This document shows positions 10,029-38,516 of a stretch of 64,000 nucleotides of DNA, piece after piece; position 1 is the first letter of the stretch, and every line of letters begins with the position of its first letter. The stretch is from Fimbriimonadaceae bacterium. GTDB taxonomy: Bacteria; Armatimonadota; Fimbriimonadia; Fimbriimonadales; Fimbriimonadaceae. The notes below the pieces were generated by a model that was given only the letters and a program-made list of their open reading frames with translations, made no database searches and was not told the DNA's origin. The position numbers and the translations under genes were made by a program. The DNA lies in contig JBGSIJ010000003.1 in assembly GCA_041742595.1 (NCBI GenBank), positions 107,409-171,408 on the forward strand, given 5' to 3'.

Positions 10029-11819
10029 ATGATGACCGACGAAATAAAGACGCTGACGCAGGAGGAGGCGGCCCCGCCGACTCCGACCGAAGCGGCGTCC
10101 GACGCGACCCCCGCTGCCGAGCAGCCCACTCCCGAAGCAATCGCCCCTCCGATGGAGGAGACGAAAGCCGAGGAGGTTGCCCCCGTAGCGACCGAGCCCC
10201 TTGCTGCCGAACCAGCAACTGCCGAGGCAGTTGCCGTGGTGGACGCTCCCGCCGACACGACCGTGGAGGACGCCATTACGGAAGCCTCGGGCCAGCCGGA
10301 ACCTCCGGCCGACGCTCCGGGCGAAACGGCCTCTCCCGAGCCCGTTGCGGTTGTCGCGCCAGTTCCCGCACCCGTTGCGGAGCCGGTAGCCCGCGACGCC
10401 AAGGCGGATGCCGACCTCTTCGAGTCCTACATGAGCTCCCTCGATGTCCAGCCGGACGTCGACGCTGGCGGCTACAAGCGACTTTCGAAGGGCGATCGCG
10501 TTGAGGCGACGGTCGTACAGGTTGAGGACGACCGCGTTTTCGTCGACCTTGGAACGAAGTCTGAAGGCATTGTCCCGCTCAGCGAGCTCACCGATACCAA
10601 CGCAGAGTCCGCCAAGGGCCTCGTCAAGATCGGCGACAAGATCCACGTCGTGGTCATCCGACCCGAGGGTGGCGGCGACAGCAATCCGATCGTTTCCAAG
10701 AAGCGAGCCGATTTCGAAGAGATTTGGGACCGCATCGAAGATGCCTTCAAGTCCCAGGAAATGATTACCGCACAGGTGATCGACCGGGTGAAGGGTGGCT
10801 TGGTGGTCGATGTAGGCGTTCGCGGCTTCGTGCCGGCAACCCACGTTGGCAGCGGCAAGCTTCGCAACATCGAGAAGTACGTTGGCCAGCCCCTCCAGCT
10901 GAAGGTCCTCGAGATCGACCGCGAGCGCAAGAAGGTCGTCCTCTCCAACCGAGAGGCCGAAGAGCAGCGCAAGGTCGAGGCCAAGGAGAACATTTTCCAG
11001 AACGCGAAGCCGGGCGACCGGTTGAGCGGAACGGTCCGACGGCTTGCCGATTACGGCGCTTTCGTCGACTTGGGCGGCGTGGATGGACTCCTGCACATCT
11101 CCGAGATGAGCTGGATGCGCATCAACCATCCCAAGGAGATGTTCAAGGAAGGCCAGAAGATCGACGTCATGGTCCTTCGTCTGGACCCGGCGGCGGGCAA
11201 GATCAGTCTTGGCCACCGGCAGGTTCTTCCGGATCCTTGGAATCTCATCAAAGAGAACTACAAGGTCGGCCAGAAGCTCACCGTCACCATCGGCCGACTC
11301 GTTCAGTCGGGTGCGTTCGTTCGGTTGCCGGAAGGCGCTGAGGCGTTCCTCCCGGTCAGCGAGATGTCGTTCCGACGCATCAAGCGACCTCAGGACGTGG
11401 TCGAAGAGAACCAGGAAGTCGAAGTCCAGATTCTGGACCTCCGCACCGAAGAGCGCCGCATGGTGCTTAGCATGCGCGCAACCGGGAACGTTCCGGCGGG
11501 CGGCGGCTACGAGGCGGGCGGAACCACCGGTTCCGAGTACGAAGACTTTAAGAACGCGGACAAGCGACGTGCCGGCCTTAAGAAGGCTGGACCGGGCGGC
11601 CCGGGTAAGAAGGGTCGTGGCGGACGCGACGAGTTCGACGATCTGGAAGAGATCAGTGGACGCCGTGGCTTCGCCACCGGGGGCGCCACCATCGGCGAGA
11701 GGCTTGGAATGCTCAAGGGCTTCCTAACCCGAGACGATGAGGAAGAAGAAGGCGCGGCCGCGCCGGCAGCGGAAGCGGTCGAAGCAGCCGCTCCGGAAGC
11801 AACCCCCGAAGGGGAATAA
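10029..11819 (+). CDS. rpsA: 30S ribosomal protein S1 with a ~125-aa Ala/Pro/Glu-rich N-terminal extension and a Gly/Arg/Glu-rich C-terminal tail
   Basis: Four S1 (OB) domains are present, with the hallmark motifs GxVV…GAFVDLGG…GLLHISE. The N-terminal extension has coding-like GC3, but no clear SD precedes either possible start. Confidence 0.85.
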   Translation: MMTDEIKTLTQEEAAPPTPTEAASDATPAAEQPTPEAIAPPMEETKAEEVAPVATEPLAAEPATAEAVAVVDAPADTTVEDAITEASGQPEPPADAPGETASPEPVAVVAPVPAPVAEPVARDAKADADLFESYMSSLDVQPDVDAGGYKRLSKGDRVEATVVQVEDDRVFVDLGTKSEGIVPLSELTDTNAESAKGLVKIGDKIHVVVIRPEGGGDSNPIVSKKRADFEEIWDRIEDAFKSQEMITAQVIDRVKGGLVVDVGVRGFVPATHVGSGKLRNIEKYVGQPLQLKVLEIDRERKKVVLSNREAEEQRKVEAKENIFQNAKPGDRLSGTVRRLADYGAFVDLGGVDGLLHISEMSWMRINHPKEMFKEGQKIDVMVLRLDPAAGKISLGHRQVLPDPWNLIKENYKVGQKLTVTIGRLVQSGAFVRLPEGAEAFLPVSEMSFRRIKRPQDVVEENQEVEVQILDLRTEERRMVLSMRATGNVPAGGGYEAGGTTGSEYEDFKNADKRRAGLKKAGPGGPGKKGRGGRDEFDDLEEISGRRGFATGGATIGERLGMLKGFLTRDDEEEEGAAAPAAEAVEAAAPEATPEGE

Positions 11820-11872: not shown

Positions 11873-12415
11873 ATGCGAATCGCGGTAACTGGCGGGATTG
11901 CGGAAGGGAAGTCCACCGTCCTGGCGGAGATCGCGTCGCTGGGAATTCCCACGCTCTCTGCAGACGCCGTTGCCCGCGAGGTGCTGAGCACAGGGCAGGT
12001 CCAGCTGGAAGTTGGCGAGGCGCTTGGTTTGTCCTTACCCCTCGACCGCGCCGAGCTCCGTGCTCGCCTTGGGGACCCGTCCGCCCGGCGAGACCTCAAC
12101 CGAATCATGCATCCGCACGTTTGGGCAACGATATCTAGCTTCCAGCACGGGGCGGTCGAAGTACCTCTTTTGATCGAAGCCTGCCTCCACCCGGCCTTTG
12201 ATCAGGTTTGGGTTGTGACTTGTGGCGTCACCGAGCAACGGCGCAGGCTGACGGAAAGGCTAGGCGATGCTAGATTGGTGGACACGCTTCTGGCCACCCA
12301 ACTGCCAACCCGAGCCAAAATTCCGTTCGCAAGCGTGATCGTGCGAACGTTGGGCGCGCCCAACCTCGTCTCAGCTTACGTCCGAGAACAGTGTCGGTTC
12401 TCCTTTCCGCCGTGA
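11873..12415 (+). CDS. coaE: Dephospho-CoA kinase
   Basis: The P-loop IAVTGGIAEGKST is present. The position after rpsA is common in bacterial genomes. Confidence 0.85.
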   Translation: MRIAVTGGIAEGKSTVLAEIASLGIPTLSADAVAREVLSTGQVQLEVGEALGLSLPLDRAELRARLGDPSARRDLNRIMHPHVWATISSFQHGAVEVPLLIEACLHPAFDQVWVVTCGVTEQRRRLTERLGDARLVDTLLATQLPTRAKIPFASVIVRTLGAPNLVSAYVREQCRFSFPP

Positions 12416-12444
12416 TTGATTGCGGATCGGCATCGTGCTATACT
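12416..12444 (+). promoter_or_regulatory. Sigma70-like promoter TTGATT-N17-TATACT, followed by a ~200 nt leader
   Basis: Near-consensus -35 and -10 hexamers with a 17-nt spacer sit immediately after the coaE stop. They are upstream of a four-gene secreted-protein block. Confidence 0.5.
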
Positions 12445-12645
12445 CGGGCGGGCTTCAGGTAAGGCGGCCAGGGTGCCGATTGTCTGGAGTTTTAGGGACG
12501 AACCAAAAAAGGTCCTGTATGCGAGGCTAGGGATGAGGCGAAATCGCGACGATTGGGGCGCGCTCCGTCGTCTACTCACCCCTCACCTGCAGGCTTCCGG
12601 GGGCAGAATGAATTTGAAGAGGTTATACAAGGAGGACTCGTCACA

Positions 12646-14610
12646 GTGAGGCGATTCATCACATCGTTAACCGGGAAGATCGTGGGTCAGGTAGTTATCC
12701 TGGCGCTGTTACTTCCCTCGCTCACCCTTACGCTCGCTGGTCGAGCGGAGGCTCAGCAACTTGCGATGCCAACATGGGCAGTCGTTGAGTTCGAGAACAT
12801 GAAGCCGGGTGGGGGGAACCTGGGCGCGATCGCCGCGGAGGCCGTTGCTTCGGAGCTGGCAAAGCTCGGCAAGTACGACGTCGTTCCGCAAGAGAACGTC
12901 AAGCGAAAGCTGGACGATCTTGGCCTTCAGAGCCCGGTAACGAGCGAGGTCAGCCTTCTCCGGTTGGCACAGGAGCTCCGCGCTTCGACCATCGTGACCG
13001 GCCAGGTAGTGAACTACCGTGTCACCAACGTCGGCGGCGGCAAGCAGGCCGACGTTTTGATGCGCATCGTCGTTCGCGACGTCGCATCCGGCCTTGCGGT
13101 GAACGGCTCCGCTCTCTCGGCCTCGTCGACGGTTCGAACCGGCGACGTTGCAGACAGCACCGTCATCCAGGAAGCATTCCAGACCGCCGCCAACCGCGCC
13201 GTCAACGACGTTCAGTCGAAGACGCTTCCGTCGGCTACGGTTCTGAACACGCTGACCACCACCGCCCTCATCAACCAGGGCGCTCGCTCCGGCTTCGAGG
13301 TCGGAATGAATCTCGTCGTCCTTCGTGGACGTGAGCAGGTGGCCACGGCCAAGGTCTACAACGTGGAGCCTGACTCTGCGAACATCCGAGTTGAGCGATC
13401 CTACAAGGGTCTTCAGCCCGGAGACAAGGTCCGCGCGATCTTCACGCCTCCCACCATCAGCCCCGACTTTGCCAAGGGCGGTGGCGTCAACATTCAGAAG
13501 CCTCGCAAGTCTGGCAACAACGCCGGCGCGATCTCCACGATCCTCGTGGTTGGCCTTGTGCTTCTCCTCGCAGGCGGCATCGGCGGCGGCGGTGGCGGCA
13601 GCAGTGCCGGTACCTCGGCGCGGGTTGCCCGTGCCGAAGCCTTCGTTGACAATGCCGGCCGACCGGCCGTTCGGATCAGCTGGGCTACCGACGGCTTCGC
13701 CAAGGGTAGCTACAACCGCGTTGCATGGCAAGTCTGGCGCAGCGAGTGGCTGGACAGCCCGGTCCTCGTGGTTCCTGGCAACTCCACTTCGGCTATCGAC
13801 AACTCGCTGGCCCGCAACGTTTCGTACAGCGACTTCGGCCGCGTGAACGGATCGACCTGCGACTTCAGCGATGCGAACCTGACGGATGCGGCAGCAGTGC
13901 CGGGCGTCACGGCGGGACGATCTCTTCGCTACCAGGTCGAGTTGGTCTACAAGATCAATGCTCTCGACCTTCCGGGCGCTGGTGGCACGAGTGGCACCGG
14001 CGGCACGGGTGGTACCGGCGGCACTAGCGGCACCGGTGGCACGGGTGGAACTGGCGGTACGGGTGGTACCGGCGGAACCGGTGGCACGGGCGGTACGGGT
14101 GGTACTGGCGGGACCGGTGGCACGGCGGGCGACGGCGGAGACTGCTTCTTCGTCTCCGGTCGAAAGACGACTGACGGCTTCGCGACTCCGGTCGTCCGCT
14201 CTCAGCTCATCTCGCCGGCGCAGAACGCTTCGGTGGCCAGCCCGACCAATGCCGGCGGCGGACAGGTTCTTAACCAGAAGGTTACGTTCACGTTCTCCTC
14301 GGTGGTCACGCTCGACACGCTCCTGGCCGAGTACATCGTTCAGGTGTCCTCCAGCTCGGACTTCGCCAAGTCGCGAACCCGAACGGTTGGCGCTAAGCTC
14401 GTGAGCTCTTCTCAGGGACAGCTTTCGATCACGGCGGACAACGACTTCTACACGGCGGCCAAGGCGGTCGTCTGGTGGCGAGTCGGCGCACGCGTCATGG
14501 ACGACAAGCCCGGCCCCTCGCCGGATAAGGCGTCTGGACTGCGCTACGTGTTCAGCTCTCCCAACCGCTTCACGAGGCCGGACGCTCCTCCGCCCCCTCC
14601 TGCTCCCTAG
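12646..14610 (+). CDS. Secreted mosaic envelope protein: signal peptide, CsgG/LpoB/TolB-N-like domain, beta-sandwich domain, central TM-like segment, Fn3-like domain, (Gly-Thr-Gly)n linker, Fn3-like domain, Pro-rich tail
   Basis: A GTG start lies 7 nt after AAGGAGGA. The signal peptide is …LTLAGRAEA|QQ. The CsgG-like pattern is VVEFENMKPGG…ELAKLGKYDVVPQENVKRKLDDLGL…IVTGQV. The hydrophobic segment is ISTILVVGLVLLLAGGIGGGGGGS. A GTGGT-type repeat is encoded by a 9-bp tandem DNA repeat. Confidence 0.7.
   Translation: MRRFITSLTGKIVGQVVILALLLPSLTLTLAGRAEAQQLAMPTWAVVEFENMKPGGGNLGAIAAEAVASELAKLGKYDVVPQENVKRKLDDLGLQSPVTSEVSLLRLAQELRASTIVTGQVVNYRVTNVGGGKQADVLMRIVVRDVASGLAVNGSALSASSTVRTGDVADSTVIQEAFQTAANRAVNDVQSKTLPSATVLNTLTTTALINQGARSGFEVGMNLVVLRGREQVATAKVYNVEPDSANIRVERSYKGLQPGDKVRAIFTPPTISPDFAKGGGVNIQKPRKSGNNAGAISTILVVGLVLLLAGGIGGGGGGSSAGTSARVARAEAFVDNAGRPAVRISWATDGFAKGSYNRVAWQVWRSEWLDSPVLVVPGNSTSAIDNSLARNVSYSDFGRVNGSTCDFSDANLTDAAAVPGVTAGRSLRYQVELVYKINALDLPGAGGTSGTGGTGGTGGTSGTGGTGGTGGTGGTGGTGGTGGTGGTGGTGGTAGDGGDCFFVSGRKTTDGFATPVVRSQLISPAQNASVASPTNAGGGQVLNQKVTFTFSSVVTLDTLLAEYIVQVSSSSDFAKSRTRTVGAKLVSSSQGQLSITADNDFYTAAKAVVWWRVGARVMDDKPGPSPDKASGLRYVFSSPNRFTRPDAPPPPPAP
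13981..14130 (+). repeat. In-frame 9-bp tandem repeat (GGYGGCACN-like, ~16 units) encoding (G-T-G/S)n
   Basis: Imperfect tandem units are directly visible: ggtggcacg / ggtggtacc / ggcggcact / agcggcacc …. Confidence 0.8.
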
Positions 14611-14681: not shown

Positions 14682-17177
14682 ATGAACCGTCTGACTAGAA
14701 TTACATCAACCATGATTGCGGCCGGAGTGGCCGTGACCGGGGCATATGCCCAGGCAGACTTCGGGGTCTTCTGCTTTGACCCAGACCCGAACTTTAACCC
14801 GTTTAGCAACCCCTTCGGGATCAACGGGCAATTCAACGATCTATTCGAATTCACCATCGGTGGCGTTGGGACCGTTGGTTGGGATGGCCAGGCCGGTCGT
14901 TGCTTCAACCCGGACATCACGCTCGACGTCCCTGGGCGCATTGGATTCGCCGTTGGGCCGGTTGGCTCGACCCAGTCTGACTTCGACCAAGGAATGGCCC
15001 TGACCATGGGCTTCCCCTACCAGGGAGGCAACTGGTCGACCGCGGTGATTACCCGTGGTGGCCAGCAAGTTAGCTACTACGGAAAGGCGGGCATGCAGCT
15101 CTTCTTTGATGGCGCTAGCGACCGCTATGTGCTTGCCGATGCTAGCCCGAGCGACGATATCACGGTCAAGTGCCGACTCGATCTGGTCGGAGACGCGACG
15201 CGCGTCAGCTACCGCCTGATCAACAACCAAACGACGGCCGCTAACCTGGGGCTGTGGTTTGGCCAGTGGGTAGAGCTTCTTACGCGGAACTATCAGTCCG
15301 CTGGCGCGTTCGGCAAGACGCCCTACATCATGATGCCGGGACGCAAGCCCTTCCTCATCGAGCAGGAGGTTTCGCGAACCGTCGACGCGGCGAACTACCC
15401 GTCTTTCGTCAATTTCAACTTCAGCCAGACCAACGCCTATGGCCTCCAGGTCATTCTCGGTCCGAGTGAGACGACCTACGACGAGACTGGACAGAGCGAT
15501 GCGACGCAGTCCGACGAGTTCAAGTTCGGCGAGGGCACCTTCAATCTCGGCGGCATCGGCGCCAACCCGCCCTTTGCCGACAGCGATCCGATCGACATCA
15601 CGGTAGGTCGCCCGTCGTACATCGTCAAGTATCCGGAGCAGTCGGTTCCGGCCGGCGGATCCCGAACGATCGTCCAGTACTTCAAGTCCACTTGGAGCTT
15701 CGCGAACTACGCCAAGCCCTACGCGGTAGTCGTAGACGCCCCGCGCTTGCTGGCGCAGAGCGCGGCAGGCGTAAACGGCCTCACGCCCAACCCCTTCACG
15801 ATCCGGGTTTACGTCGACAACATTCGCGGCTACACCACCGTGAACGAGGAAGTGACGCTGAACGAAGTCAAGGTCAACCTGAACCTGCCTCAGGCCACCG
15901 GCCTCAAGCTGGCCACTGGTCAGTCCGCCACTCGGATCATCGATCGAATCGCGCCCCGCCAGATTCGGTTCGTAGACTTCGTTGTCGTTGCCAATGGCAA
16001 GACCTACGGTTCTCAGGGCTTCACCGTGAAGGTGACCCCCAACCCCGGTCCGGTGAAGACGGTTAAAGGCTCGATCATGATCGCAGCCACGCCCAAGCTC
16101 TTCCTGAAGCCCAAGGCCAACCTGGTTTCGATCCCGTTCAAGGTCAACAACACCAGCCTCTCGTCGGTGCTCGGCCTCAAGAGCCCAACCGAGTTCCAGG
16201 CCTTTGCCTACAGCCCGCAGCAGCGCGGCTACATCCTGCAGACCAACGTCCAGCGGGGTAAGGGCTACTGGGTCGTCTACAACAAGACGACTAACGCGGA
16301 GATCGACCTTCAGGGAAGCCCGACGACCCCGACGGATACGTCCACCGGCGCGCCGAACATCGTTCTGAAGTCCGGCTGGAACCTGATCGGCAATCCCTAC
16401 AACTACGTGTTCCCGCTTGGCCAACTGGTTGGCGTCAGCGGCTCCGCCCCCGGCGAAGCTCTGACCTGGGCGGAACTCGTGCAGCAGGGAATCGTGGGAC
16501 CGGCGCTCGCATACTGGGACAACTCGTTGCTCCCGGCCCGGGCCGCCGTCTACAAGTACCTGGAAGGCACGGAATCGCCCTTGGCGCCTAACACGGGCTA
16601 CTGGCTCTACGTGAACACTTCCGAGGATCTGACCCTTGCGTTCCCGCCCGTCTACCAGGAGTTCCTGCCTGGTTCGAGTCGGAGCCCCGAGAAGTTCACC
16701 GCAAAGGGACCCACCGTCCTCGCCTCCGCGCCTAAGCCCACCTATAGCGTTCAGATGATCGCAACGGCGGGAAGCGTTTCGGCTGGACAGTCGTCCTCCG
16801 TGGATGATCAGAACTTCTTTGGCCAGGCTTCTCATGCAGCCAAGCTCACGCTCCTTCAGCGGCCCAAGCCGCCAAAGGCCCCGGTTCAGTCCCTCAACGC
16901 CTACTTCAAGGAAGAGTCGCGAGGACAGAACCTGGCGATGAGCCGATACTACAAGCTGAACGGCAACACGACGTTCGACTTCGTAGTCGAGTCCGAGAGC
17001 AACGGTCTGGTGGTTCTCACCTGGCCCAACCTCGCCACGGCCCTCAAGACGGTGAAGTTCACCATCCGAGACCTGGCGACGGGTGTGACGCGAGACATGC
17101 GCGCTACGGACCGATTCGGTTACACGGCGAGCAAAGGCAAGCCGAGCACCTTCCGCATCACGGCCACCTGGCCCTAG
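14682..17177 (+). CDS. Large secreted hypothetical protein (831 aa)
   Basis: The signal peptide is MNRLTRITSTMIAAGVAVTGAYAQA. It is co-oriented 71 nt after the previous gene and is rich in Thr/Asn/Gly beta-strand-like sequence. No domain is recognised with confidence. Confidence 0.65.
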   Translation: MNRLTRITSTMIAAGVAVTGAYAQADFGVFCFDPDPNFNPFSNPFGINGQFNDLFEFTIGGVGTVGWDGQAGRCFNPDITLDVPGRIGFAVGPVGSTQSDFDQGMALTMGFPYQGGNWSTAVITRGGQQVSYYGKAGMQLFFDGASDRYVLADASPSDDITVKCRLDLVGDATRVSYRLINNQTTAANLGLWFGQWVELLTRNYQSAGAFGKTPYIMMPGRKPFLIEQEVSRTVDAANYPSFVNFNFSQTNAYGLQVILGPSETTYDETGQSDATQSDEFKFGEGTFNLGGIGANPPFADSDPIDITVGRPSYIVKYPEQSVPAGGSRTIVQYFKSTWSFANYAKPYAVVVDAPRLLAQSAAGVNGLTPNPFTIRVYVDNIRGYTTVNEEVTLNEVKVNLNLPQATGLKLATGQSATRIIDRIAPRQIRFVDFVVVANGKTYGSQGFTVKVTPNPGPVKTVKGSIMIAATPKLFLKPKANLVSIPFKVNNTSLSSVLGLKSPTEFQAFAYSPQQRGYILQTNVQRGKGYWVVYNKTTNAEIDLQGSPTTPTDTSTGAPNIVLKSGWNLIGNPYNYVFPLGQLVGVSGSAPGEALTWAELVQQGIVGPALAYWDNSLLPARAAVYKYLEGTESPLAPNTGYWLYVNTSEDLTLAFPPVYQEFLPGSSRSPEKFTAKGPTVLASAPKPTYSVQMIATAGSVSAGQSSSVDDQNFFGQASHAAKLTLLQRPKPPKAPVQSLNAYFKEESRGQNLAMSRYYKLNGNTTFDFVVESESNGLVVLTWPNLATALKTVKFTIRDLATGVTRDMRATDRFGYTASKGKPSTFRITATWP

Positions 17178-17229: not shown

Positions 17230-19233
17230 ATGAAGCGCTGGATCCTACTGCCCCTCGTTGTAGTCGCCGCCGTAGCGGCCTATGCGAGCCGGGCCTCGGT
17301 TCGGCTAGAGATCTTCCCGACCGTTAGCGTGGCCGATGCCCGCAGCACGGTTACCGTAACCGCCGAGATTCGCGACGCCAACGGCAAACGCGTTCCGAAC
17401 GGCACCCAGGTGATCTTCAACACCACCCTCGGCCAGTTCCGAGAAACCGTGGTGACCACCGAAAACGGATTTGCCCGAGGAATTCTCAAAGCAGGCGGTA
17501 TTCCGGGCAGCGCCAAGGTCACGGTCACCGTTCCTGCCTTTAGTACCGTCGGAACCACGGACTTCGAGTTCTTAAGCGATCGAAGCCTCCTGGCTAGCGC
17601 CAAGGAATACATCGAGATCGTCGCGCCGAGCGACCTTCGGTTCAGTCTGGACAACAACCTTCTTGGGGCGTCCGGCCCAGGCAAAACGGTCAAGCTTCGA
17701 TACCGAGAGGTTGAGATCGAGGCCGACGACATCCAGCTTGACATTTCGGCGTACACGGTTCGAGCGCGAAAGGCCACCCTACATATCAACAAGAAGGATT
17801 ACGAGTTTGGCGAGCTGTCCTTCCGGCTCAACACGCGCAAGGGGTTTGGTACCGCAGTTGTCCCAGCCGACGTGATCTCCAGCATCGAACTCGCTGGCTT
17901 CATGCCGATGATCCGCACGGAGAAGCGAGATCGCCTCTCGCTGGTTCAGGTGACCTCGAGCGGGATCACGGCCGCGACCGAGCCATTTCCGGCGGAAGGG
18001 TTCCTTTTCATGGATCCCTCCGAGAGCATTACCCAGATTTCCGCCAAGAAGGCCATCGTATTCCCCCGCAAGCTGATCCAGTTTCAGAAGGCGGAAGTCT
18101 ACGTTGGCCCCACGCGAGTCATGCAGATTCCGCTCTACCAGGTGAACCTGAACGGCAACAGCCAGATGTTCACGGAGCAGATCGTAAATGTGGCGGACAA
18201 CCAGCTCTCCGTCAACTATCCCTACTATCTCAGCATGCGACCCGGCGAAACCAGCCTGCTGCGCTTCCGTCTCGGCGGAAACGCGGGGCGAGGCTTCTCG
18301 GCGACCGGCGGCGCCTTCGTGGACTACGAACTTCGGTGGAACCGGGGCGACGAGTTCGACGGTGGCCTCACGTTCTCCGGTATCGGGCGAAACGACTGGA
18401 ACCTAGGCTTGCGCCAAAGCATTCAGATCGATCCTCACACCAATGCGTTCGCCCAGCTAGACATGCCGGCGGGCCGCTACCTCTATGGCAACGGCAGCAT
18501 TAGTCGCCAGTTCACGGGATTCCAGGTCAACCTGTCTGGGAACGCAAGTCGATCGCTCCGAGGGCTGAACTACGAAGACCAGCGCCTCTCGCTCAGCCTC
18601 GATACCGACGGCAGCAAGATCCGCAATCTGCCCGTGACGATGTACTACGGGATCGGGCTAACCAGCAACAAGACCCGCTACGATCTCCAGAACCGCCAGG
18701 ACGTAACCCGCAACTACCGGGACCTGGCGCTCACAACTCGGGCTCAACTCAACTCGATTACGATCGACTCCGACACCAACCTGAACGCCTCCATCAGCAC
18801 CAACGTGCGCCCCCATCGAAAGGACCGGGCGGTGGGCCTGTTGGGAAGTGTGACGGTCGCCCGACAACTGGGAACGGGCGCGAACCTGAATCTCACCTAC
18901 GACTACGTAGACGACCTCTTCGATGGCGGATTCCTCGGACGCCACCGTCTCAGCTTCCAGGGATTTCTCGGCAGCGGTCGAACCTCGTTCTCCATCTTTG
19001 GCACCAAGAGCCTCGATGCCGATCGGCTCAGCCTAAACGGCGACTTCAGTTACCAAGTCAGCGGGTTGTGGCGACTAAGCAGCATCTACACCTTCGACAA
19101 GTTCCTCGGGGACACGGTGCTGGACTACGGCCTCGGCATCGCTTACCGCCTGGGCTGGCGCGAAGTGGGCCTGACGTGGTCGAAGCGTACCGGCCGATTG
19201 GGAATCCAGGTCCTTGGTACGAGCTTTAACTAG
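17230..19233 (+). CDS. Putative outer-membrane protein with an N-terminal bacterial Ig-like (Big_1) domain and a C-terminal beta-barrel-like region
   Basis: The signal peptide is MKRWILLPLVVVAAVAAYA. The Big-like segment is TVTVTAEIRDANGKRVPNGTQVIFNTTLGQF…AKVTVTV. The C-terminal half has alternating hydrophobic residues, Gly/Asn/Ser-rich turns and an aromatic-rich C-terminus (…LGTSFN). Confidence 0.6.
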   Translation: MKRWILLPLVVVAAVAAYASRASVRLEIFPTVSVADARSTVTVTAEIRDANGKRVPNGTQVIFNTTLGQFRETVVTTENGFARGILKAGGIPGSAKVTVTVPAFSTVGTTDFEFLSDRSLLASAKEYIEIVAPSDLRFSLDNNLLGASGPGKTVKLRYREVEIEADDIQLDISAYTVRARKATLHINKKDYEFGELSFRLNTRKGFGTAVVPADVISSIELAGFMPMIRTEKRDRLSLVQVTSSGITAATEPFPAEGFLFMDPSESITQISAKKAIVFPRKLIQFQKAEVYVGPTRVMQIPLYQVNLNGNSQMFTEQIVNVADNQLSVNYPYYLSMRPGETSLLRFRLGGNAGRGFSATGGAFVDYELRWNRGDEFDGGLTFSGIGRNDWNLGLRQSIQIDPHTNAFAQLDMPAGRYLYGNGSISRQFTGFQVNLSGNASRSLRGLNYEDQRLSLSLDTDGSKIRNLPVTMYYGIGLTSNKTRYDLQNRQDVTRNYRDLALTTRAQLNSITIDSDTNLNASISTNVRPHRKDRAVGLLGSVTVARQLGTGANLNLTYDYVDDLFDGGFLGRHRLSFQGFLGSGRTSFSIFGTKSLDADRLSLNGDFSYQVSGLWRLSSIYTFDKFLGDTVLDYGLGIAYRLGWREVGLTWSKRTGRLGIQVLGTSFN

Positions 19234-21016
19234 CCTTCTCGTCGTGGCGGCTGCCACGGCGAGCATGGCTCAGGCCTTTGGCCGCTTCGGCTACTCGCCG
19301 TTTCCCGCCGTGCCAGGCTGGACCTTGGACGCCGAGGGAATCCGTGCCAATTTCCCCAGCGCAGACAAGCTGACCTTCCCCATGGCCCTCAAGAAGTGGC
19401 AGCCCGTGGAGACCTCTGACCTTAGGCAAGTGTCCCTCACCGGCGGCGGCGCAGGTTCGCCTTCAAAAGTCCGTGCTAGCCTGCTGAGCTTTGGAGTATC
19501 GATGTACTTTGAAGCGGGCGTTGCGTTGGGCCTCACCTCCACGGCCAGCCCCTACCTAAGTTGGGCCGAGGGCACGGTCGAGGACGGTGTCCCCACCCCC
19601 AACGCCAAATGGGTCTTGGTCTCGTTCCGAGACCGGCAACCGCCGATCCTCTTGGTCTTTGGCGGAGAGGCGCCGGGATTGGTGATCCAGGGCAAGCCTG
19701 GGGCATGGACCCTGAAAACGCCGGGCGTCTACAAGGGCTGGGTCCGCTTTTGCCTCCCCCGCGGCACCGAGGCTGCCGAGGCGAACTCTGCCGCGGGCCT
19801 TGGCAAACTGGTCAAGGCGGTAGAGGCAAATGAGGATCTTTGGGTGCGCGGGGATCCTGAAGTGACCAAGACCACCGTTCAGGAGGAATGGACGGCGGTG
19901 ACGGGCGACTTCCTGTACTCCGCAGCCGGCGTGCCGGTGCCGTCCCCGGTCGACTTGGCCCCTCTCGGGGGATACCCGGTCAAGGCCCTGACTAAGATCC
20001 GAAAGCTAGACTTCACTCTGGACGGTCAGTCGGTGTTTGTTACCGCCGAGCGATCGCTCAAGATTCGGTTTCCCGTAAAGCGAGTGCCCACGGGCCGTGG
20101 CCTTGCCGTGGGCAAACGCGCCCAAGAGCCCCTTGGCACCGTGTCCTCGCTAGACTTGCCGAGCGTGGCAGAACTTGCCCTGGAGAACCTCCTGGGCACC
20201 CGCGACCGCCGACTCCGTGAGACGGGCGAGCGGGCGATGGCAGAATTCGTCCAAGCCGCTTCCTCCTCACGCGAGCCCTGGACCAAGCAGACCATGCTGT
20301 ACGGGGAGGACGGAGCCGGGATCGATCTGGCCGCCTCCCACGCGCTCCTGATGCAGGCGCTCGCCGCAATCAACCAGGCTTCGAGCGAAGCCAACTCGCT
20401 CCTCACCTCGATCACGTGGCGTCGAGACTGGCTGAGTTGGCGTCTCTGGGGAGTCGATGCCGTCAAGGCGCGTCGCGCCGCGGCGCTGGCCAGCCTTGCC
20501 GGAGCGCTATGCCCGGAACCCGAACGAAGGCTGGAGGCGGCGATCCTCCAGGCTGGCCTTGCCGCCGAGCGGGGAGCGGCCATCCGCCGTGCCCGAGCAA
20601 CCCAAACCGAAGCCCCCGTCTTTCTGGAACCCATGGACGCCCTTCGCCAGAGCCTGTTTGGCTCCGTGATCCCGCCCGCCGCTGAGGATCCCTTTCTCAA
20701 GGTTCTTCTCAGTGAGATTCGCGCTTACGGCGACGCCGCTCTTGAACTGGCTTCTACTGAGGAGCGGGTCTACGTGGCCGCCTGGGAGGCCAAGGACACC
20801 TTGGCCGCAACGCTGACGCTTGCGGCGGGCTACCCAATCCAGGTGGAAAACCTGAACCTCGACAAGTTCGAGGTCGCCCAAGGCCTTGGGTTCACCAAAA
20901 TGACCGTGCGCCCCAAGGCGCCCGGGCGGTGCGAGATTAGGATTCGTATACCGGCCTGGGCCAAACTCCTCCCCGTATTCGTCGAGCCCTCCGCTTATTC
21001 AGAAACGTCGCGCTGA
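19214..21016 (+). CDS. Secreted hypothetical protein (600 aa)
   Basis: The start is a TTG that overlaps the previous gene's end by ~20 nt. The signal peptide is (M)VRALTSLLVVAAATASMAQA. The 3' end overlaps convergent nadB by 22 nt. Confidence 0.5.
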   Translation: MVRALTSLLVVAAATASMAQAFGRFGYSPFPAVPGWTLDAEGIRANFPSADKLTFPMALKKWQPVETSDLRQVSLTGGGAGSPSKVRASLLSFGVSMYFEAGVALGLTSTASPYLSWAEGTVEDGVPTPNAKWVLVSFRDRQPPILLVFGGEAPGLVIQGKPGAWTLKTPGVYKGWVRFCLPRGTEAAEANSAAGLGKLVKAVEANEDLWVRGDPEVTKTTVQEEWTAVTGDFLYSAAGVPVPSPVDLAPLGGYPVKALTKIRKLDFTLDGQSVFVTAERSLKIRFPVKRVPTGRGLAVGKRAQEPLGTVSSLDLPSVAELALENLLGTRDRRLRETGERAMAEFVQAASSSREPWTKQTMLYGEDGAGIDLAASHALLMQALAAINQASSEANSLLTSITWRRDWLSWRLWGVDAVKARRAAALASLAGALCPEPERRLEAAILQAGLAAERGAAIRRARATQTEAPVFLEPMDALRQSLFGSVIPPAAEDPFLKVLLSEIRAYGDAALELASTEERVYVAAWEAKDTLAATLTLAAGYPIQVENLNLDKFEVAQGLGFTKMTVRPKAPGRCEIRIRIPAWAKLLPVFVEPSAYSETSR

Positions 21017-26801: not shown

Positions 26802-29800
26802 ATGGGAGTGGGGATTGTATTACTCGCCGCCAGCCTTGGGGCCGGCGGACACCTTTCGGCAACGTCGTCTCAGGCGCCGTTGCTCCTTCGAAATCCGGCC
26901 ATTGGTCCGGATTCCATCGTTTTCAGCTTCGCCGGCGACCTCTGGTCGGTTCCTAGGAATGGTGGACGCGCGGGACGACTCACCGTTTCGCCCGGAGTCG
27001 AGACGGACGCCGCTTTCTCGCCGGATGGCAAGTGGATCGCCTTCAGCGGCACCTACGACGGAAACCCGGATGCGTACGTCATCCCGGCCAGCGGAGGGAC
27101 GCCCCGCCGGCTCACATATTTCCCGGGACCCGACGGCGTGGCCGGCTGGTCGCCCGACGGAAAGTCGGTGCTGGTGCTCTCCACCCGGGGCGGCTACCTT
27201 CCGATCCCCAAGATCTACAAGGTCCCCGCGCAAGGGGGAGTCGCCGAGATGCTCCCGTTCCCGCGAGTTCGCGAGGGATCCCTATCGCCAGATGGCGCTC
27301 GCCTGGCCTACAGCCCGGGATTCCAATTCCAGGAGGCCTGGAAGCGCTACCGGGGTGGCCAGACCTACCCGATCTGGATCGGCCAACTTGCAGACTCCAA
27401 GGTCAAGGAGATTCCGCGCAACAACTCCAACGACAAGAACCCGATGTGGGTGGGCAACTCGGTCTACTTCATCTCGGACCGCAATGCCGGCATCTTTGGC
27501 TTGTTCCGCTACGATGTCGCCAGCAACAAGGTCAGTGAGGTCGTGAAGGGCGAAGGCATGGACATCAAGTCCGCCACTGCTGGCTTTGGCGCTATCGCCT
27601 ACGAGAAGTTCGGTAGCCTCCGGGTCTACGACCTGGAAACCAAGACCGACAAGGAAGTCCCCGTTGAAATCGACGGCGATTTCGCCGAGGTTCGGCCCCA
27701 GTTCAAGACGGCCGGCCCGTCCAACCTGTCCATCTCGCCCAGCGGCGCCCGCGTCGCGGTCGAGGCGCGAGGCCATGTGGTCACCGTTCCCGCCGCCAAG
27801 GGAGACCCGCGGGATCTGACCCCCGAGCCGGGAGTGGCCAATCGCTATCCCGCGTGGTCGCCGGACGGAAAGACGCTGGCCTACTACTCGGACAAGGGCG
27901 GCGAGTACAAGCTCGTTCTCCGCAACTCGAACTCCGACGAGAGCCGAACCGTGGAGCTAGGCGAGGCGCCCGGCTACTATTATCAGCCCGTTTGGTCGCC
28001 GGACAGCAAGCGCATCGGCTACTGGGACAACAAGCACAACCTCTGGAGCCTAGACGTGGCGAGCGGGGTCAGCACCAAGATCGACACCGCCACCTACGAG
28101 GACCCAACCCGCGAAGCCAACATCGCTTGGTCGCCCGACTCGCAATGGATGGTTTGGTCACGGGACCTGGACACCCAGTTCAACGCGGTCTTCCTCTACA
28201 GCTTCGAGCAGAAGAAAAAGGTCCAGGTGACCGATGGCCTTAGCGATGCCAAATTCCCGGCATTCGACAACGGCGGCAAGTACCTGTACTTCATCGCCAG
28301 CACGGATACCGCTTCCAGCACGGCGTGGCTGGACCTTTCGGTTCTTGCCTTCCAGAACAAGACTAGCAGCGTCTACTGCGCGGTCCTCAAGGCCGACGAG
28401 CCAGACCCCCTCAAGCCGGAATCGGACGAGGAGGGCGTGGCTCCCGCCAAGCCTGCAGAATCCAAGTTCGGAATCGACCTGGAGGGTCTCGACCAGCGCG
28501 TGGTCACCCTTCCCGTACCGGCCCGTAACTACGTGGCGCTGAAGGCCGGCACGCCCGGATCGGTGCTTCTGCTCCACACCGGCCTCACCCCCACCACCCC
28601 GACCCCCGCGCCGGTGGCGCTCACGAAGTTCGACTTCGCCAGCAAGGCCAACATGCCTCTGGCCAACAACGTTCAGGCCATCGACGTCACCCCGAAAGGC
28701 GACAAGATGCTCCTGATCGTGGGCGGCCAGGCGCTCATCGCCTCGACCATGGCCCCGCCTCCTCCCGGCGCGGGAGCCATCAGCCTGAACCTCGACGTGA
28801 GAATCGATCCGCGAGCCGAGTGGCGGCAGATGTTCCACGAGGCCCTGCGTGTGCAGCGCGACTTCTTCTACGATCCCAACCTCCATGGCCAGGATGTGAA
28901 GAAGCTGGCAGCCCGCTACGAGCCGTACCTGGAGAACCTCAGCTCGCGCGCCGATCTGAACTACATCCTCGAGGACATGCTGGGCGAAATCAGCGTGGGC
29001 CACATGTACATCAGCGGCGGGGACATCCCCGGCGTTCGCGGTCCCGGCGGCGGACTCCTCGGCGCGGACTATGTGCTAGAGGCCAACCGCTACAAGCTAA
29101 GCAAGGTGCTTACCGGCGAGAGCTGGAATCCAGGCACCCGGGCTCCGCTGACCCAGCCGGGCGTGGCCGCCAAGGTCGGCGAGTTCATCCTCGCGATCGA
29201 CGGAAAAGAGCTCTACGCCAAGGACGACATCTACCAGGCGCTCGAGGGCAAGGCCGGAAAGCAGATCAAGGTGAAGATCGGCCCGAACGCCGACGGCACC
29301 GGCTCGCGAGAGGTCGTGGTGGTCCCGGTCGGCAGTGAGAGCGGCCTCCGCTACTTGGCTTGGCGTGAGGACAACCGGCGTACGGTTGCCAAGCTCAGCG
29401 GCGGCAAGTTGGGTTACGTTCACGTCCCCGACACGAACCTCGGCGGCTGGAACGGGTTCAACCGGTTCTACTACAGCCAGAAGGATCGCGACGGGCTGAT
29501 CATCGACGAGCGCTTCAACGGCGGCGGCAGCGTGGACGACTACATGGTCGACCAGATGATCCGACCGATGCGCAGCATGTGGACCGCGCGCTACGGCAAG
29601 GACTTCGCCAGTCCTGCCAGCCAGCACTTCGGCCCTAAGGTCATGATCATCGACCAGTACGCCGGCTCCGGCGGCGACTACTTCCCGTGGCACTTCCGAG
29701 AAGCCAAAGCGGGCCCGATCGTGGGCAAGCGAACGTGGGGCGGCCTCGTAGGCATCCTCATCTTCCCGCAACTGGTGGATGGCGGTAGCGTCACCTCGCC

Positions 29801-30017
29801 CAATATTGCCTTCTACAACCCAGACGGGAAGTGGGAGATCGAGAACTACGGCGTCCCGCCGGACGTCGAGGTCGAGTACGACCCGTTCCTCTGGCGGCAG
29901 GGCCGAGATGCCCAGCTCGAGAAGGCGGTCGAGGTCGCGATGGAGCGACTGAAGACCTGGAAGAAGCCGGAGATCAAGAAGCCGGCCTATCCCAACAAGA
30001 GCAAGCTCCCCGGCTAA
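26802..30017 (+). CDS. Tricorn-protease-type S41 peptidase (TolB-like beta-propellers, PDZ and C-terminal S41 catalytic domain)
   Basis: The protein is 1071 aa. The C-terminal region (…DERFNGGGSVDDYMV…GKRTWGGLVGI…NYGVPPDVEVEYDP) aligns with tricorn core protease motifs, including the catalytic Ser region. An N-terminal signal peptide is present. Confidence 0.8.
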   Translation: MGVGIVLLAASLGAGGHLSATSSQAPLLLRNPAIGPDSIVFSFAGDLWSVPRNGGRAGRLTVSPGVETDAAFSPDGKWIAFSGTYDGNPDAYVIPASGGTPRRLTYFPGPDGVAGWSPDGKSVLVLSTRGGYLPIPKIYKVPAQGGVAEMLPFPRVREGSLSPDGARLAYSPGFQFQEAWKRYRGGQTYPIWIGQLADSKVKEIPRNNSNDKNPMWVGNSVYFISDRNAGIFGLFRYDVASNKVSEVVKGEGMDIKSATAGFGAIAYEKFGSLRVYDLETKTDKEVPVEIDGDFAEVRPQFKTAGPSNLSISPSGARVAVEARGHVVTVPAAKGDPRDLTPEPGVANRYPAWSPDGKTLAYYSDKGGEYKLVLRNSNSDESRTVELGEAPGYYYQPVWSPDSKRIGYWDNKHNLWSLDVASGVSTKIDTATYEDPTREANIAWSPDSQWMVWSRDLDTQFNAVFLYSFEQKKKVQVTDGLSDAKFPAFDNGGKYLYFIASTDTASSTAWLDLSVLAFQNKTSSVYCAVLKADEPDPLKPESDEEGVAPAKPAESKFGIDLEGLDQRVVTLPVPARNYVALKAGTPGSVLLLHTGLTPTTPTPAPVALTKFDFASKANMPLANNVQAIDVTPKGDKMLLIVGGQALIASTMAPPPPGAGAISLNLDVRIDPRAEWRQMFHEALRVQRDFFYDPNLHGQDVKKLAARYEPYLENLSSRADLNYILEDMLGEISVGHMYISGGDIPGVRGPGGGLLGADYVLEANRYKLSKVLTGESWNPGTRAPLTQPGVAAKVGEFILAIDGKELYAKDDIYQALEGKAGKQIKVKIGPNADGTGSREVVVVPVGSESGLRYLAWREDNRRTVAKLSGGKLGYVHVPDTNLGGWNGFNRFYYSQKDRDGLIIDERFNGGGSVDDYMVDQMIRPMRSMWTARYGKDFASPASQHFGPKVMIIDQYAGSGGDYFPWHFREAKAGPIVGKRTWGGLVGILIFPQLVDGGSVTSPNIAFYNPDGKWEIENYGVPPDVEVEYDPFLWRQGRDAQLEKAVEVAMERLKTWKKPEIKKPAYPNKSKLPG

Positions 30018-37658: not shown

Positions 37659-38516
37659 ATGAAGAAAGCATTTACGCTCATCGAGCTCCTCGTCGTGATC
37701 GCGATCATCGCGATTCTTGCGGCGATTCTTTTCCCCGTCTTCGCCCAGGCTAAGGCTGCCGCCAAGAAGACCGCTTCGCTCAGCAACGTCAAGCAGAACA
37801 TGCTTGGCCTTCTGATGTACAACGGCGACAACGACGATCTGTTCGCTCCGGTTGTCTCCTGGAGCGGCCCGGCGCCCGCCTTCTTCGGCGGCACCCCCTA
37901 CCAGCCGTGGTCTTGGCTTGTGCTCCCCTACATGAAGAGCACGGACATCCTGCAGGACCCCCAGGCTCCTTCCATGGAAGCTTGGCCGGCCGTTTGGAAC
38001 GTCAACACCACCAAGGCGTTGGCTCCCCAGTACGGTCTCAACTACCAGGGCCTGAGCCCGGTCACTGCGGGAACGGACACTGCGTTCCAGATCACCCCGG
38101 TCAGCAGCACCTCCGTCGAGAGCCCGTCCGAGACGGTCGCCCTCGCGGCTAAGTTCTCCACTTCGGAGGACGCCCTCGGCGCTTCTGGCACCTACTGGGC
38201 CGGCGCTGGCTCCTGGACCACGGTCGTGACGGTTGAAGGCCCCGAGTGCTTCACCATCGTTCCCTACTGCTTCGTCAACTGGGGCGTTGGTTCCTGGTAC
38301 GACACCGACTACCTGAACCAGAACAAGGCTGCCGGCGCCAAGACGGGCGGCGTTTCGCTGCGCAACGCGGACCGCTCGATCGTCTCCTGGGTTGACGGCC
38401 ATGCTTCCGCGAACTCCGCCGGACAGCTTGCGAAGGGAACGAACTTCACGTTCGACACCGCCGAAGCTTCCGTCGTCTTCACGGACGAAACCCTGTACCT
38501 CTGGGACTCTAAGTAA
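37659..38516 (+). CDS. Prepilin-type N-terminal cleavage/methylation-domain protein of the DUF1559 (H-X9-DG) family, copy 1
   Basis: The N-terminus MKKAFTLIELLVVIAIIAILAAILFPVF is a class III signal with a type IV pilin-like helix. The C-terminus is RNADRSIVSWVDGH. Confidence 0.8.
   Translation: MKKAFTLIELLVVIAIIAILAAILFPVFAQAKAAAKKTASLSNVKQNMLGLLMYNGDNDDLFAPVVSWSGPAPAFFGGTPYQPWSWLVLPYMKSTDILQDPQAPSMEAWPAVWNVNTTKALAPQYGLNYQGLSPVTAGTDTAFQITPVSSTSVESPSETVALAAKFSTSEDALGASGTYWAGAGSWTTVVTVEGPECFTIVPYCFVNWGVGSWYDTDYLNQNKAAGAKTGGVSLRNADRSIVSWVDGHASANSAGQLAKGTNFTFDTAEASVVFTDETLYLWDSK

Follow-up and report, generated by a model that had tools for sequence, protein, structure and literature searches.

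A putative envelope protein of Fimbriimonadales with an outer-membrane-lipoprotein-type fold, a central hydrophobic helix and a double Fn3-like cassette, encoded near a predicted LptD-like gene

The locus and the protein family

We analyzed a window of 64,000 nucleotides from a Fimbriimonadaceae bacterium (assembly GCA_041742595.1, contig JBGSIJ010000003.1, forward-strand positions 107,409 to 171,408). On its plus strand, an open reading frame of 654 codons (12646-14610, stop at 14608-14610) is followed by three further genes, denoted g2, g3, and g4, and the block also holds the housekeeping genes S1, coaE, and nadB. The features of the locus are listed in Table 1. The same 654-aa product was called independently on a public contig that is nearly identical. 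The coordinates given in an earlier note on this DNA were right. A promoter-like site was found directly past the coaE stop codon, approximately 200 nt 5' of the start codon. An Rfam search of 12380-12700 gave no match, including in the 230-nt leader. An antisense reading frame at 12709-13731 was dismissed as an ordinary spurious frame of 62% G+C DNA.

Table 1 Positions of the features in the window, with the basis on which each was assigned
Feature	Position	Strand	Description	Basis
Promoter-like site	12416..12444	+	TTGATT-17-TATACT, extended TG	Consensus scan only
Translation start	12629..12648	+	AAGGAGG ribosome-binding site (12629-12635), GTG start codon (12646-12648)	Sequence read directly
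Signal peptide	12646..12753	+	aa 1-36; MRRFITSLTGK, ~20 hydrophobic residues, RAEA/Q	Family consensus, conservation
Alpha/beta domain	12763..13230	+	aa ~40-195; PelC/CsgG/FlgT-N/LpoB/TolB-N/LptE fold
Small beta-barrel domain	13231..13500	+	aa ~196-285; with the preceding domain, a FlgT-like two-domain module
Hydrophobic helix and flanks	13501..13611	+	KPRK basic flank; helix aa ~292-312 (nt 13519-13581); Gly-rich exit GGIGGGGGGSS
First Fn3-like beta-sandwich	13612..13980	+	aa ~323-445; invariant C405 (nt 13858-13860)	AlphaFold2, Fn3 tandem matches
G/T-rich low-complexity loop	13981..14136	+	aa 446-497	pLDDT <50; tandem array
Returning strand and second beta-sandwich	14137..14580	+	Strand with invariant C500 (nt 14143-14145); aa ~498-645	AlphaFold2
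Proline tail and stop codon	14581..14610	+	PDAPPPPPAP	PPPPP in family consensus
g2	14682..17177	+	821-831 aa; N-terminal signal-like sequence, no family assignment
g3	17230..19233	+	LptD-like by predicted fold	AlphaFold2 (pLDDT 79.4), Foldseek, Pfam
g4	19214..21016	+	583-600 aa; N-terminal signal-like sequence, no detectable family	Overlaps or abuts g3

We found approximately 90 full-length homologues with 36-62% identity and 103 relatives among species-representative genomes, all of them from Armatimonadota and mainly from Fimbriimonadales. These homologues and relatives confirm that the reading frame is a genuine gene and not a chance ORF. The earlier note had called the protein a mosaic. 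Homologues are present in over 100 genomes at the species level, and the protein is no recent mosaic but belongs to an old family that is spread across the order within a conserved gene block. The carrier order consists of soil bacteria and includes Fimbriimonas ginsengisoli as a cultured member.

Most of the family statistics below come from an alignment of 72 homologues. Searches of Pfam, NCBIfam, and PDB sequences, the last with both the single protein and the family profile, returned nothing above threshold. The phmmer matches to PDB sequences were rejected, as all were artefacts of the G/T-rich stretch. An AlphaFold2 model of the protein was confident (mean pLDDT 85.7). It places a signal peptide, an alpha/beta domain, a small beta-barrel, a hydrophobic helix, a double Fn3-like cassette, and a PPPPP end in this order.

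Domain architecture

The N-terminal signal noted earlier is present and ends in a conserved AxA-Q site. The family consensus reads MRRFIxSLPGK...RAxAQ, with A34, A36, and Q37 at least 90% conserved, and A-x-[AG]-Q is found in 64 of the 72 members. Sequence inspection and family statistics identified the features of a Sec-type cleavable signal, namely a positive n-region, a hydrophobic h-region, and AxA at -3/-1. The summed Hessa energy of the h-region (about +0.7 kcal/mol) is signal-peptide-like and not anchor-like. There is no lipobox Cys in the cleavage region. Some features recall Tat signals: an RR pair (53 of 57 complete N-termini), a length of approximately 36 aa, and a basic residue before AxA (57/72). 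The motif is RRF[IL]x[ST], compared with RRxFLK ((S/T)RRxFLK) for Tat, and the h-region is fairly hydrophobic. Dual Sec/Tat schemes were rejected, as none puts both the N-terminal and the C-terminal modules outside without an extra membrane crossing.

The alpha/beta domain begins approximately five residues past the AxA-Q site. In the model it has the alpha/beta sandwich fold of the CsgG/LpoB/PelC/TolB-N/LptE class, and the best structural matches of the N-terminal module (aa ~40-285) were PelC, CsgG, FlgT, LpoB, TolB, LptE, PqiC, and TraT. These families are periplasmic or associated with the outer membrane, and most are lipoproteins. The likeness to CsgG and LpoB reported in the earlier note therefore holds at the level of fold, as shown by the Foldseek matches, but does not extend to family membership, since there is no lipobox, no Pfam match at threshold, and no barrel hairpin. 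That note described a single N-terminal domain; the alpha/beta domain is there, but the small beta-barrel behind it had been overlooked. The arrangement of the two domains is closest to FlgT (Foldseek 8z5n, E 2.8e-11; 3w1e, E 2.5e-10; 267-268 columns). A homologue search using the N-terminal module alone returned only fragments of the protein's own family.

We compared the module with each of these systems. FlgT, the H-ring protein of the Vibrio flagellum (3w1e, 8z5n), shares the alpha/beta N-domain followed by a C-terminal beta-barrel, but it lacks the hydrophobic helix and the Fn3-like cassette. No FlgT Pfam model matched at threshold (FlgT_M and FlgT_C each matched 2 of 72 members with E ~0.02), and no flagellar genes were identified among the neighbors (S1, coaE, g2-g4, nadB). 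PelC and CsgG are ring-forming outer-membrane lipoproteins of secretion systems that carry a lipobox, whereas our protein has AxA-Q with no Cys at this site. CsgG also builds its own 36-strand barrel from hairpins, while our model has no transmembrane beta-hairpins. The CsgG model PF03783 did not match the protein and reached only 1 of 72 members (E 0.075), and there is no pel or csg context. LptE, the plug lipoprotein of the LptDE LPS translocon, is lipidated and about four times shorter, and it lacks the helix and cassette. Its fold match scored below those of PelC, CsgG, and FlgT, and PF04390 matched 2 of 72 members below threshold (E 0.056), with no lipobox in our protein. LpoB, the activator of PBP1b, has a lipobox and a long disordered N-terminal tether, neither of which is found here; PF13036 matched 14 of 72 members below threshold (best E 0.0017), and there is no PBP context.

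The C-terminal cassette consists of two beta-sandwiches that match Fn3 tandems, so that the two Fn3-like modules of the earlier note stand at the level of fold. The fn3 Pfam model PF00041 did not match the protein, and it is absent from the 25 families that members hit most frequently. Two cysteines, C405 and C500, are invariant in all 72 members, and the mature protein has hardly any other Cys. Distant homologues keep both, apart from one that has neither. It is well supported that the cassette is a disulfide-type double Fn3-like unit with a putative C405-C500 pair. The second sandwich carries a W-R-V-G-A-R-x-x-D-x-P-G-P motif, in which R612, G614, D620, and P624 are invariant.

A disordered G/T-rich stretch does exist where the earlier note placed a GTG-repeat linker. 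Its DNA is a 9/18/54-bp imperfect tandem array at 13981-14128 (TRF), and its length varies across the family from 9 to 114 aa (median 64; 77% G+T+S). Homologous cassettes have a turn of approximately 7 aa at this place. The stretch is thus an expandable loop before the C500 strand and not an inter-domain hinge. The PPPPPAP tail described earlier was also present and is conserved in the family consensus.

A profile of the second-sandwich domain retrieved 1046 proteins (E<=1e-3), among which the domain is repeated in proteins with a signal peptide and in giant multi-repeat proteins. The uncharacterized proteins P0239, P0240, and P0294, together with the giant repeat proteins, are true sequence homologues of the whole cassette. 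The cassette occurs in tandem behind signal-like N-termini in P0239, P0240, and P0294, with no intervening hydrophobic segment by eye, and 7-26 times in the giant proteins, one of which has a T9SS sorting domain. These multi-cassette and giant proteins share the WRVGARxxDxPGP motif and the PPPP motif, which in P0239 and P0240 forms the joint between cassettes. In contrast to our protein, they have 2-26 cassettes straight after the signal peptide, and neither the Cys pair nor the G/T-rich loop, helix, or N-terminal module is present in them. The composition of the cassette is rich in Ser (12%) and poor in Glu (1.4%) and Lys (3.2%).

The gene block and its LptD-like member

Among 80 species-level loci, the order of the 654-aa gene, g2, g3, and g4 was found in nearly all loci that were long enough. 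The g2 gene follows in nearly all of these; it was missing in four loci, where g3 comes directly after the 654-aa gene. In most loci g4 follows g3. An LptD-like gene, as judged by fold, is therefore conserved one or two genes downstream. The earlier note had overlooked this conserved neighborhood. Homologues of g2 have a weak C-terminal FlgD_ig-type domain, and zero relatives of g2 and g4 were found in PDB, Pfam, or NCBIfam.

The predicted g3 protein consists of a signal peptide, a Big_1/Invasin_D3 Ig domain, a beta-jellyroll, and a large beta-barrel of approximately 22-26 strands. This fold has the layout of LptD, with an N-terminal beta-jellyroll and a very large C-terminal beta-barrel. In a Foldseek search of PDB, each of the top 13 matches was a full-length LptD of an LptDE complex (E 5e-14 to 8e-11, 675-835 columns), and the next class, the ushers, followed at approximately 1e-7. 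At the sequence level, Pfam detected Big_1/Invasin_D3 only, none of 60 g3 family members matched the LptD/OstA Pfam models at E<=1, and the g3 profile found only the Ig domains of intimin and invasin, and no LptD, among PDB sequences. Based on the modelled fold, g3 is predicted to be an LptD-like outer-membrane protein.

Since the block holds the housekeeping genes S1, coaE, and nadB, plain shared descent within one order may account for some of the synteny. The 654-aa protein could then have a function unrelated to g3, either in regulating peptidoglycan synthases as LpoB does or as a PelC-like exopolysaccharide funnel. We consider this quite improbable. Of the surrounding ORFs that were examined, none was identified as a pel, PBP, or polysaccharide-synthesis gene, no terminator-like site was found between the 654-aa gene and the end of g4, and its linkage to g3 within the same gene order is kept in a 30%-identical relative despite inserted genes.

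The central helix and placement in the envelope

The glycine-flanked hydrophobic helix reported earlier was found in all 72 homologues. It is uniformly hydrophobic and not amphipathic (Kyte-Doolittle 19-mer score 1.6-2.8; summed Hessa insertion energy with a family median of -1.85 kcal/mol), and is followed by a helix-breaking Gly run. The core bounded by ILVFMW is short (median 15 aa). AlphaFold2 models a free helix at 292-309 with low pLDDT. With this helix and the insertion energy, the alternative of a buried beta-hairpin, which would have removed the topology puzzle, does not apply. The N-terminal flank of the helix is richer in K+R than the C-terminal flank (3.25 and 1.07, respectively) in 66 of 72 members, with the reverse in none. 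This bias would favor an N-in/C-out orientation, at odds with the signal peptide.

The earlier note had called the topology ambiguous. The conflict is real and is sharper than that note had it, because each half of the protein bears independent extracytoplasmic signatures. For the N-terminal module, these are the n-h-c signal with AxA-Q, the marginal h-region, and the fold matches to periplasmic or outer-membrane-associated proteins. For the cassette, they are the invariant C405 and C500, the occurrence of homologous cassettes behind signal-like N-termini, the composition, and the K+R bias. The signal peptide, positive-inside bias, conserved Cys pair, and compartment history of the domains are jointly incompatible with one inner-membrane helix, and the protein is therefore a clean natural test of topology rules, independent of the LptD question.

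By the textbook, a protein with a cleavable signal and, after it, a single strongly hydrophobic segment would be a type I inner-membrane protein. The signal would be cleaved, the FlgT/PelC-like module would be periplasmic, the helix would be a Sec stop-transfer anchor, and the cassette and proline tail would be cytoplasmic. No unknown pathway is needed, and the hydrophobicity of the helix in all members and its insertion energy agree with an anchor. However, this would leave the cassette in the wrong compartment, given a Cys pair that is invariant apart from the one distant homologue, a Ser-rich and Glu/Lys-poor composition, and homologous cassettes that directly follow signal peptides or occur in giant proteins of the T9SS type. 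The K+R bias is also opposite to the prediction in 66 of 72 members and agrees with it in none. We regard a type I protein as unlikely.

The reverse arrangement, in which the N-terminal stretch is not a working export signal, would leave the N-terminal module in the cytoplasm, with the central helix as an N-in/C-out signal-anchor that exports the cassette alone. This is the sole topology that fits both the positive-inside bias at the helix and an exported cassette. For a signal peptide, the degree of conservation of MRRFIxSLPGK is unusual. The N-terminal stretch is also less hydrophobic than the central helix, which could thus be the first to engage SRP. Even so, we give this arrangement little credence.

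Two further routes were rejected. Internal cleavage at an 'AEA' past the helix was discarded because this site aligns to 'ARAG' in the first strand of all cassette homologues and is a beta-strand in the model. Sortase, exosortase, and rhombosortase sorting signals lie at the C-terminus and have their basic residues past the helix, whereas here the basic cluster precedes the helix and 340 residues come after it.

The extracytoplasmic signatures on both halves would also be consistent with both modules being periplasmic and the helix not spanning a bilayer. It could lie in a ring bundle (PelC/CsgG/TraT-like), in the groove of a partner (e.g. the g3 jellyroll or g4), or in one leaflet. Several structural neighbors of the N-terminal module assemble into 9-12-mer rings, and the helix core is short, ends in a Gly run, and is modelled with low confidence. 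TraT, a conjugative surface-exclusion lipoprotein, is a decamer (PMC11733297). TraT is lipidated and has three amphipathic helices in a decameric helical barrel (PMC11733297), while our protein has a single helix that is uniformly hydrophobic and, unlike TraT, has its alpha/beta domain on the N-terminal side of the helix. Against two periplasmic modules, the helix is uniformly hydrophobic and not amphipathic, and it would still need to pass SecYEG without arrest. We doubt that both modules are periplasmic.

The best explanation is that this is an envelope protein specific to Fimbriimonadales (Armatimonadota). We tentatively favor, as plausible though somewhat short of probable, that it is a helix-anchored, non-lipoprotein counterpart of outer-membrane subunits of the LptE/PelC type. 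Both modules would then end outside the cytoplasm. The N-terminal module might sit at the periplasmic face of the outer membrane as an accessory, plug, or ring subunit of the LptD-like g3 barrel. The link to this partner is suggested by the top 13 fold matches of g3, the conserved gene order, and the block free of terminator-like sites. The central helix would replace the N-terminal lipid of Lol-containing bacteria and would cross or embed in the outer membrane, which would place the cassette and its variable loop on the cell surface; we count the short core in support of this. Against it, a summed insertion energy near -1.9 kcal/mol means that the helix should be a Sec stop-transfer anchor in the inner membrane. 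LptM, a lipoprotein, can be passed by LptDE with its polypeptide inside the barrel lumen while its acyl chains stay outside (PMC12065857). By analogy, the helix might be handed over along the Lpt pathway and in this way escape arrest.

Core LPS genes (PMC5007114) and OmpM (bioRxiv 10.1101/2021.05.31.446380) are present in Armatimonadetes. Diderm Terrabacteria are reported in reviews to build their outer membrane with Bam and Lpt homologues (PMC11784454, PMC13018214), and to lack Lol and any outer-membrane lipoproteins, LptE included (PMC11784454; bioRxiv 10.1101/2021.05.31.446380; PMC13018214). As the gene lies beside the LptD-like g3 gene, it may reveal how the translocon is equipped in bacteria that have no outer-membrane lipoproteins, and the locus is a concrete, testable candidate for how LptD-type barrels work in their absence. 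The locus would pair a Gracilicute outer-membrane-lipoprotein fold, with a peptide helix in place of the lipid, and a barrel whose fold is LptD-like but which sequence models do not detect. The pairing is kept throughout an order with F. ginsengisoli as a cultured member. In its fullest form, the proposal is that the family is the functional equivalent of LptE, or of another accessory subunit of the outer-membrane-lipoprotein type, in a diderm Terrabacterium. The protein would adopt the PelC/LptE fold without being lipidated, a single alpha-helix would keep it in the outer membrane, and a strongly diverged LptD would deliver it or assemble with it, with the variable Fn3-like cassette on the surface. 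We think that this full form is rather unlikely to be correct. If true, it would mean that an alpha-helix of uniform hydrophobicity can get past the inner membrane during export and serve as an outer-membrane anchor.

In 1992, Engel and colleagues (cited in PMC10160955) reportedly proposed that Omp-alpha of Thermotoga, an exported protein of a deep-branching diderm, is anchored in the outer membrane through one hydrophobic helix. Omp-alpha is not homologous to our protein. Its helix is C-terminal with nothing after it, and the rest consists of an SLH domain and a coiled coil.

Gene, family and predicted fold

The target, a putative envelope protein of Fimbriimonadales, starts at a GTG codon inside a longer open reading frame that is the longest across the region. 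An AAGGAGG site lies 10 nt 5' of this start, an independent gene call on a near-identical public contig gave the same product, and the third-position G+C of the frame was 0.74. No terminator-like sites were found between the promoter-like site and the end of g4, the fourth downstream gene. The putative leader, about 200 nt from the promoter-like site to the start codon, is unusually long; the 230-nt leader had no Rfam match.

The target family is real and conserved. Among 5.8 billion proteins searched, about 90 were full-length homologues (36-62% identity, 585-753 aa); all were unannotated, and every named one was from Fimbriimonadaceae or Fimbriimonas. The architecture was also kept in four more distant relatives with about 30% identity. 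Scanning one genome per GTDB species gave 103 relatives, and all of the retained loci (80/80) belonged to Armatimonadota, mainly Fimbriimonadales, with a few being mislabelled bins. The target itself had only a sub-threshold Pfam match (DUF3280, E 0.09) and no NCBIfam match. Its PDB sequence matches were rejected as artefacts of a low-complexity stretch.

The AlphaFold2 model, built from a 72-sequence alignment, was confident (mean pLDDT 85.7). The best fold match in the PDB by Foldseek was FlgT (8z5n, E 2.8e-11; 3w1e, E 2.5e-10), covering both N-terminal domains over 267-268 columns, followed by PelC, GNA1162, CT253, CsgG and LpoB. Individual members (n = 72) had weak Pfam matches to LpoB (14/72), TolB_N (7/72), FlgT_M, FlgT_C and LptE (2/72 each) and CsgG (1/72). 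The earlier note had called this part CsgG/LpoB-like, which holds for the fold and not for membership of any such family, because the sequence matches are sub-threshold and a lipobox is absent; CsgG also has barrel hairpins that the target model lacks. The target would work most like the LptE/PelC/FlgT class, yet is a member of none of those families. The Fn3-like modules proposed for the C half were recovered as matches to Fn3 tandems in the PDB. No described counterpart was found for an architecture in which a signal peptide is followed by a FlgT-like module, a hydrophobic helix and a cassette with a putative disulfide.

Features of the target protein and of the surrounding window
Feature	Position	Strand	Remarks
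Ribosomal protein S1 homologue	10029-11819	+	
Sigma-70-like promoter site	12416-12444	+	directly after coaE
Putative target leader	12416-12645	+	
Longest ORF	12553-14610	+	
Target	12646-14610	+	654 aa
Signal, helical	aa 1-36		AlphaFold2
Alpha/beta domain	aa 40-195		AlphaFold2, pLDDT >93
Small beta-barrel	aa 196-285		AlphaFold2
Central helix	aa 292-309		AlphaFold2, low pLDDT
First beta-sandwich	aa 323-440		AlphaFold2
Disordered stretch	aa 448-495		AlphaFold2
Second beta-sandwich, then proline tail	aa 499-645		AlphaFold2
g2	14682-17177	+	821-831 aa, signal-like N-terminus
g3	17230-19233	+	667 aa
g4	19214-21016 (alternative start 19265)	+	583-600 aa, signal-like N-terminus, conserved after g3
Tricorn-type protease homologue	26802-30017	+	1071 aa
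Prepilin-motif proteins	37659-38516, 38952-39800	+	~285 aa each

C-terminal cassette and topology

The C half of the target is a cassette of the exported type. A profile of the second sandwich had 1046 matches at E ≤ 1e-3 among 1.84 billion representative proteins. The complete cassette, comprising both sandwiches and a PPPP joint, was found two to four times in tandem directly behind the signal-like N-termini of P0239, P0240 and P0294, and a MAFFT alignment showed the target to be colinear with cassettes of this type over its entire C half. Other proteins of 900-4100 aa carried it as 7-26 repeats, some with fn3 or SusE-like segments and one with a T9SS sorting domain. The cassette, with its WRVGARxxDxPGP motif and PPPP joints, is a widespread repeat (up to 26 copies per protein, with lengths reaching ~4100 aa; also in P0270, P0272 and P0353), and Pfam has no model for it. 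By composition, the target cassette is high in Ser (12.3%), with little Glu (1.4%) or Lys (3.2%).

Two cysteines of the cassette, C405 and C500, were invariant (72/72 members), while other cysteines were sporadic and mostly within the signal peptide. The distant homologues P0092-P0094 retained both and P0091 neither. The pattern fits a putative structural disulfide, C405-C500, that would pin a returning strand.

The disordered G/T-rich stretch had been described as a flexible linker separating the Fn3 modules. It is disordered in the AlphaFold2 model and is an insertion between the 'YxVxxVYK' and 'CFFVS' strands. Homologous cassettes have only a turn of about 7 residues at this position. Within the family the length varies between 9 and 114 residues, and the coding DNA is an imperfect 9/18/54-bp array. 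The stretch is therefore an expandable loop and not an inter-domain hinge.

At the N-terminus, the n-region is positive (RR in 53 of 57 complete N-termini), the h-region spans about 20 residues with marginal insertion energy (median +0.68 kcal/mol), and A-x-[AG]-Q is present in 64/72 members. The segment looks like a cleaved signal, judging from these motifs, with some features that may be Tat-like. The central hydrophobic segment was present in 72/72 members, with a median summed Hessa energy of -1.85 kcal/mol and a short core (median 15 residues). Within 15 residues on either side, mean K+R was 3.25 on the N side vs 1.07 on the C side; the N side was the richer one in 66 of the 72 members, and the C side in none.

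The topology puzzle raised earlier, that a single central TM helix after a cleaved signal would place the Fn3-like modules in the cytoplasm, was confirmed. Given these features, three statements cannot all hold: that the N-module (the two N-terminal domains) is exported, that the cassette is extracytoplasmic, and that the central helix crosses the inner membrane (IM) once, as an ordinary span. The first two are each supported by at least two independent lines of evidence and the third is a strong prior only, so we judged, without computing it, that the helix is probably not an ordinary span. By the same kind of judgement, a type I protein, with the signal cleaved, the N-module periplasmic, the helix as a Sec stop-transfer and the cassette cytoplasmic, would preserve that prior at the expense of the cassette evidence and is a rather unlikely second. 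A non-exported N-module, at odds with the evidence for its export, comes third and is quite improbable.

Conserved neighbourhood and an LptD-like partner candidate

The order S1 - coaE - target - g2 - g3 - g4, with nadB convergent, was found in almost every locus of sufficient length; g2 was missing from four. Linkage of target and g3 homologues was kept in a 30%-identical relative, which has extra genes between them and another large gene upstream of the target, with products carrying FlgD_ig-type domains. No family was detected for g2 or g4, and g4 had no Pfam, NCBIfam or PDB relative.

By sequence, g3 matched only Big_1/Invasin_D3, and no LptD relation was detectable at this level. It is a predicted outer-membrane protein: in its AlphaFold2 model (pLDDT 79.4), an Ig domain and a beta-jellyroll accompany a barrel of about 22-26 strands. 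The top 13 PDB fold matches were all full-length LptD (E 5e-14 to 8e-11), with ushers next (~1e-7). This model suggests that g3 may be the LptD of Fimbriimonadales that sequence models miss.

In Gracilicutes, the fold of the first target domain occurs mainly in outer-membrane (OM) lipoproteins that partner barrels or trans-envelope machines, such as LptE, PelC, CsgG, PqiC, LpoB and TraT. We infer that the target family could be a non-lipidated version of an LptE/PelC-type OM subunit, with the LptD-like g3 as its partner. The central peptide helix would take the place of the lipid anchor and the cassette would be exposed beyond the OM. The helix would then have to escape arrest at the IM. Armatimonadetes carry core LPS genes (PMC5007114) and OmpM (bioRxiv 10.1101/2021.05.31.446380). 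In Terrabacteria, Lol is practically absent and the Bam and Lpt machines are without OM lipoprotein subunits (bioRxiv 10.1101/2021.05.31.446380; PMC11784454), and LptD of diderm Firmicutes is without LptE (PMC13018214). A helix-anchored OM subunit is conceivable because TraT, a structural neighbour of the target, is OM-anchored through alpha-helices and has an extracellular ring (PMC11733297), and LptDE can pass the lipoprotein LptM with its protein part in the lumen and its acyl chains outside (PMC12065857).

Several further observations were made around these loci. Homologues of g2 have a weak FlgD_ig-type domain at the C-terminus. The target homologue of the distant relative L004 is surrounded by several proteins with a FlgD_ig tail, among them an S8 peptidase and a Tricorn/PD40 protein of 1963 aa, and this clustering hints at a shared sorting tag. 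In a Fimbriimonas MAG (locus L003, 2216-7878, minus strand), coaE and the target are directly preceded by a pilMNO-secretin cluster that is encoded on the other strand; such a cluster was not seen in the window. Within the window, the S1 homologue has an Ala/Pro/Glu-rich N-terminal extension of about 150 aa before its S1 domains, and the Tricorn-type homologue has PD40 repeats, Tricorn C1, PDZ and Peptidase_S41. The two neighbouring proteins with prepilin-type N-terminal methylation motifs are unusually long for pilin-like proteins.
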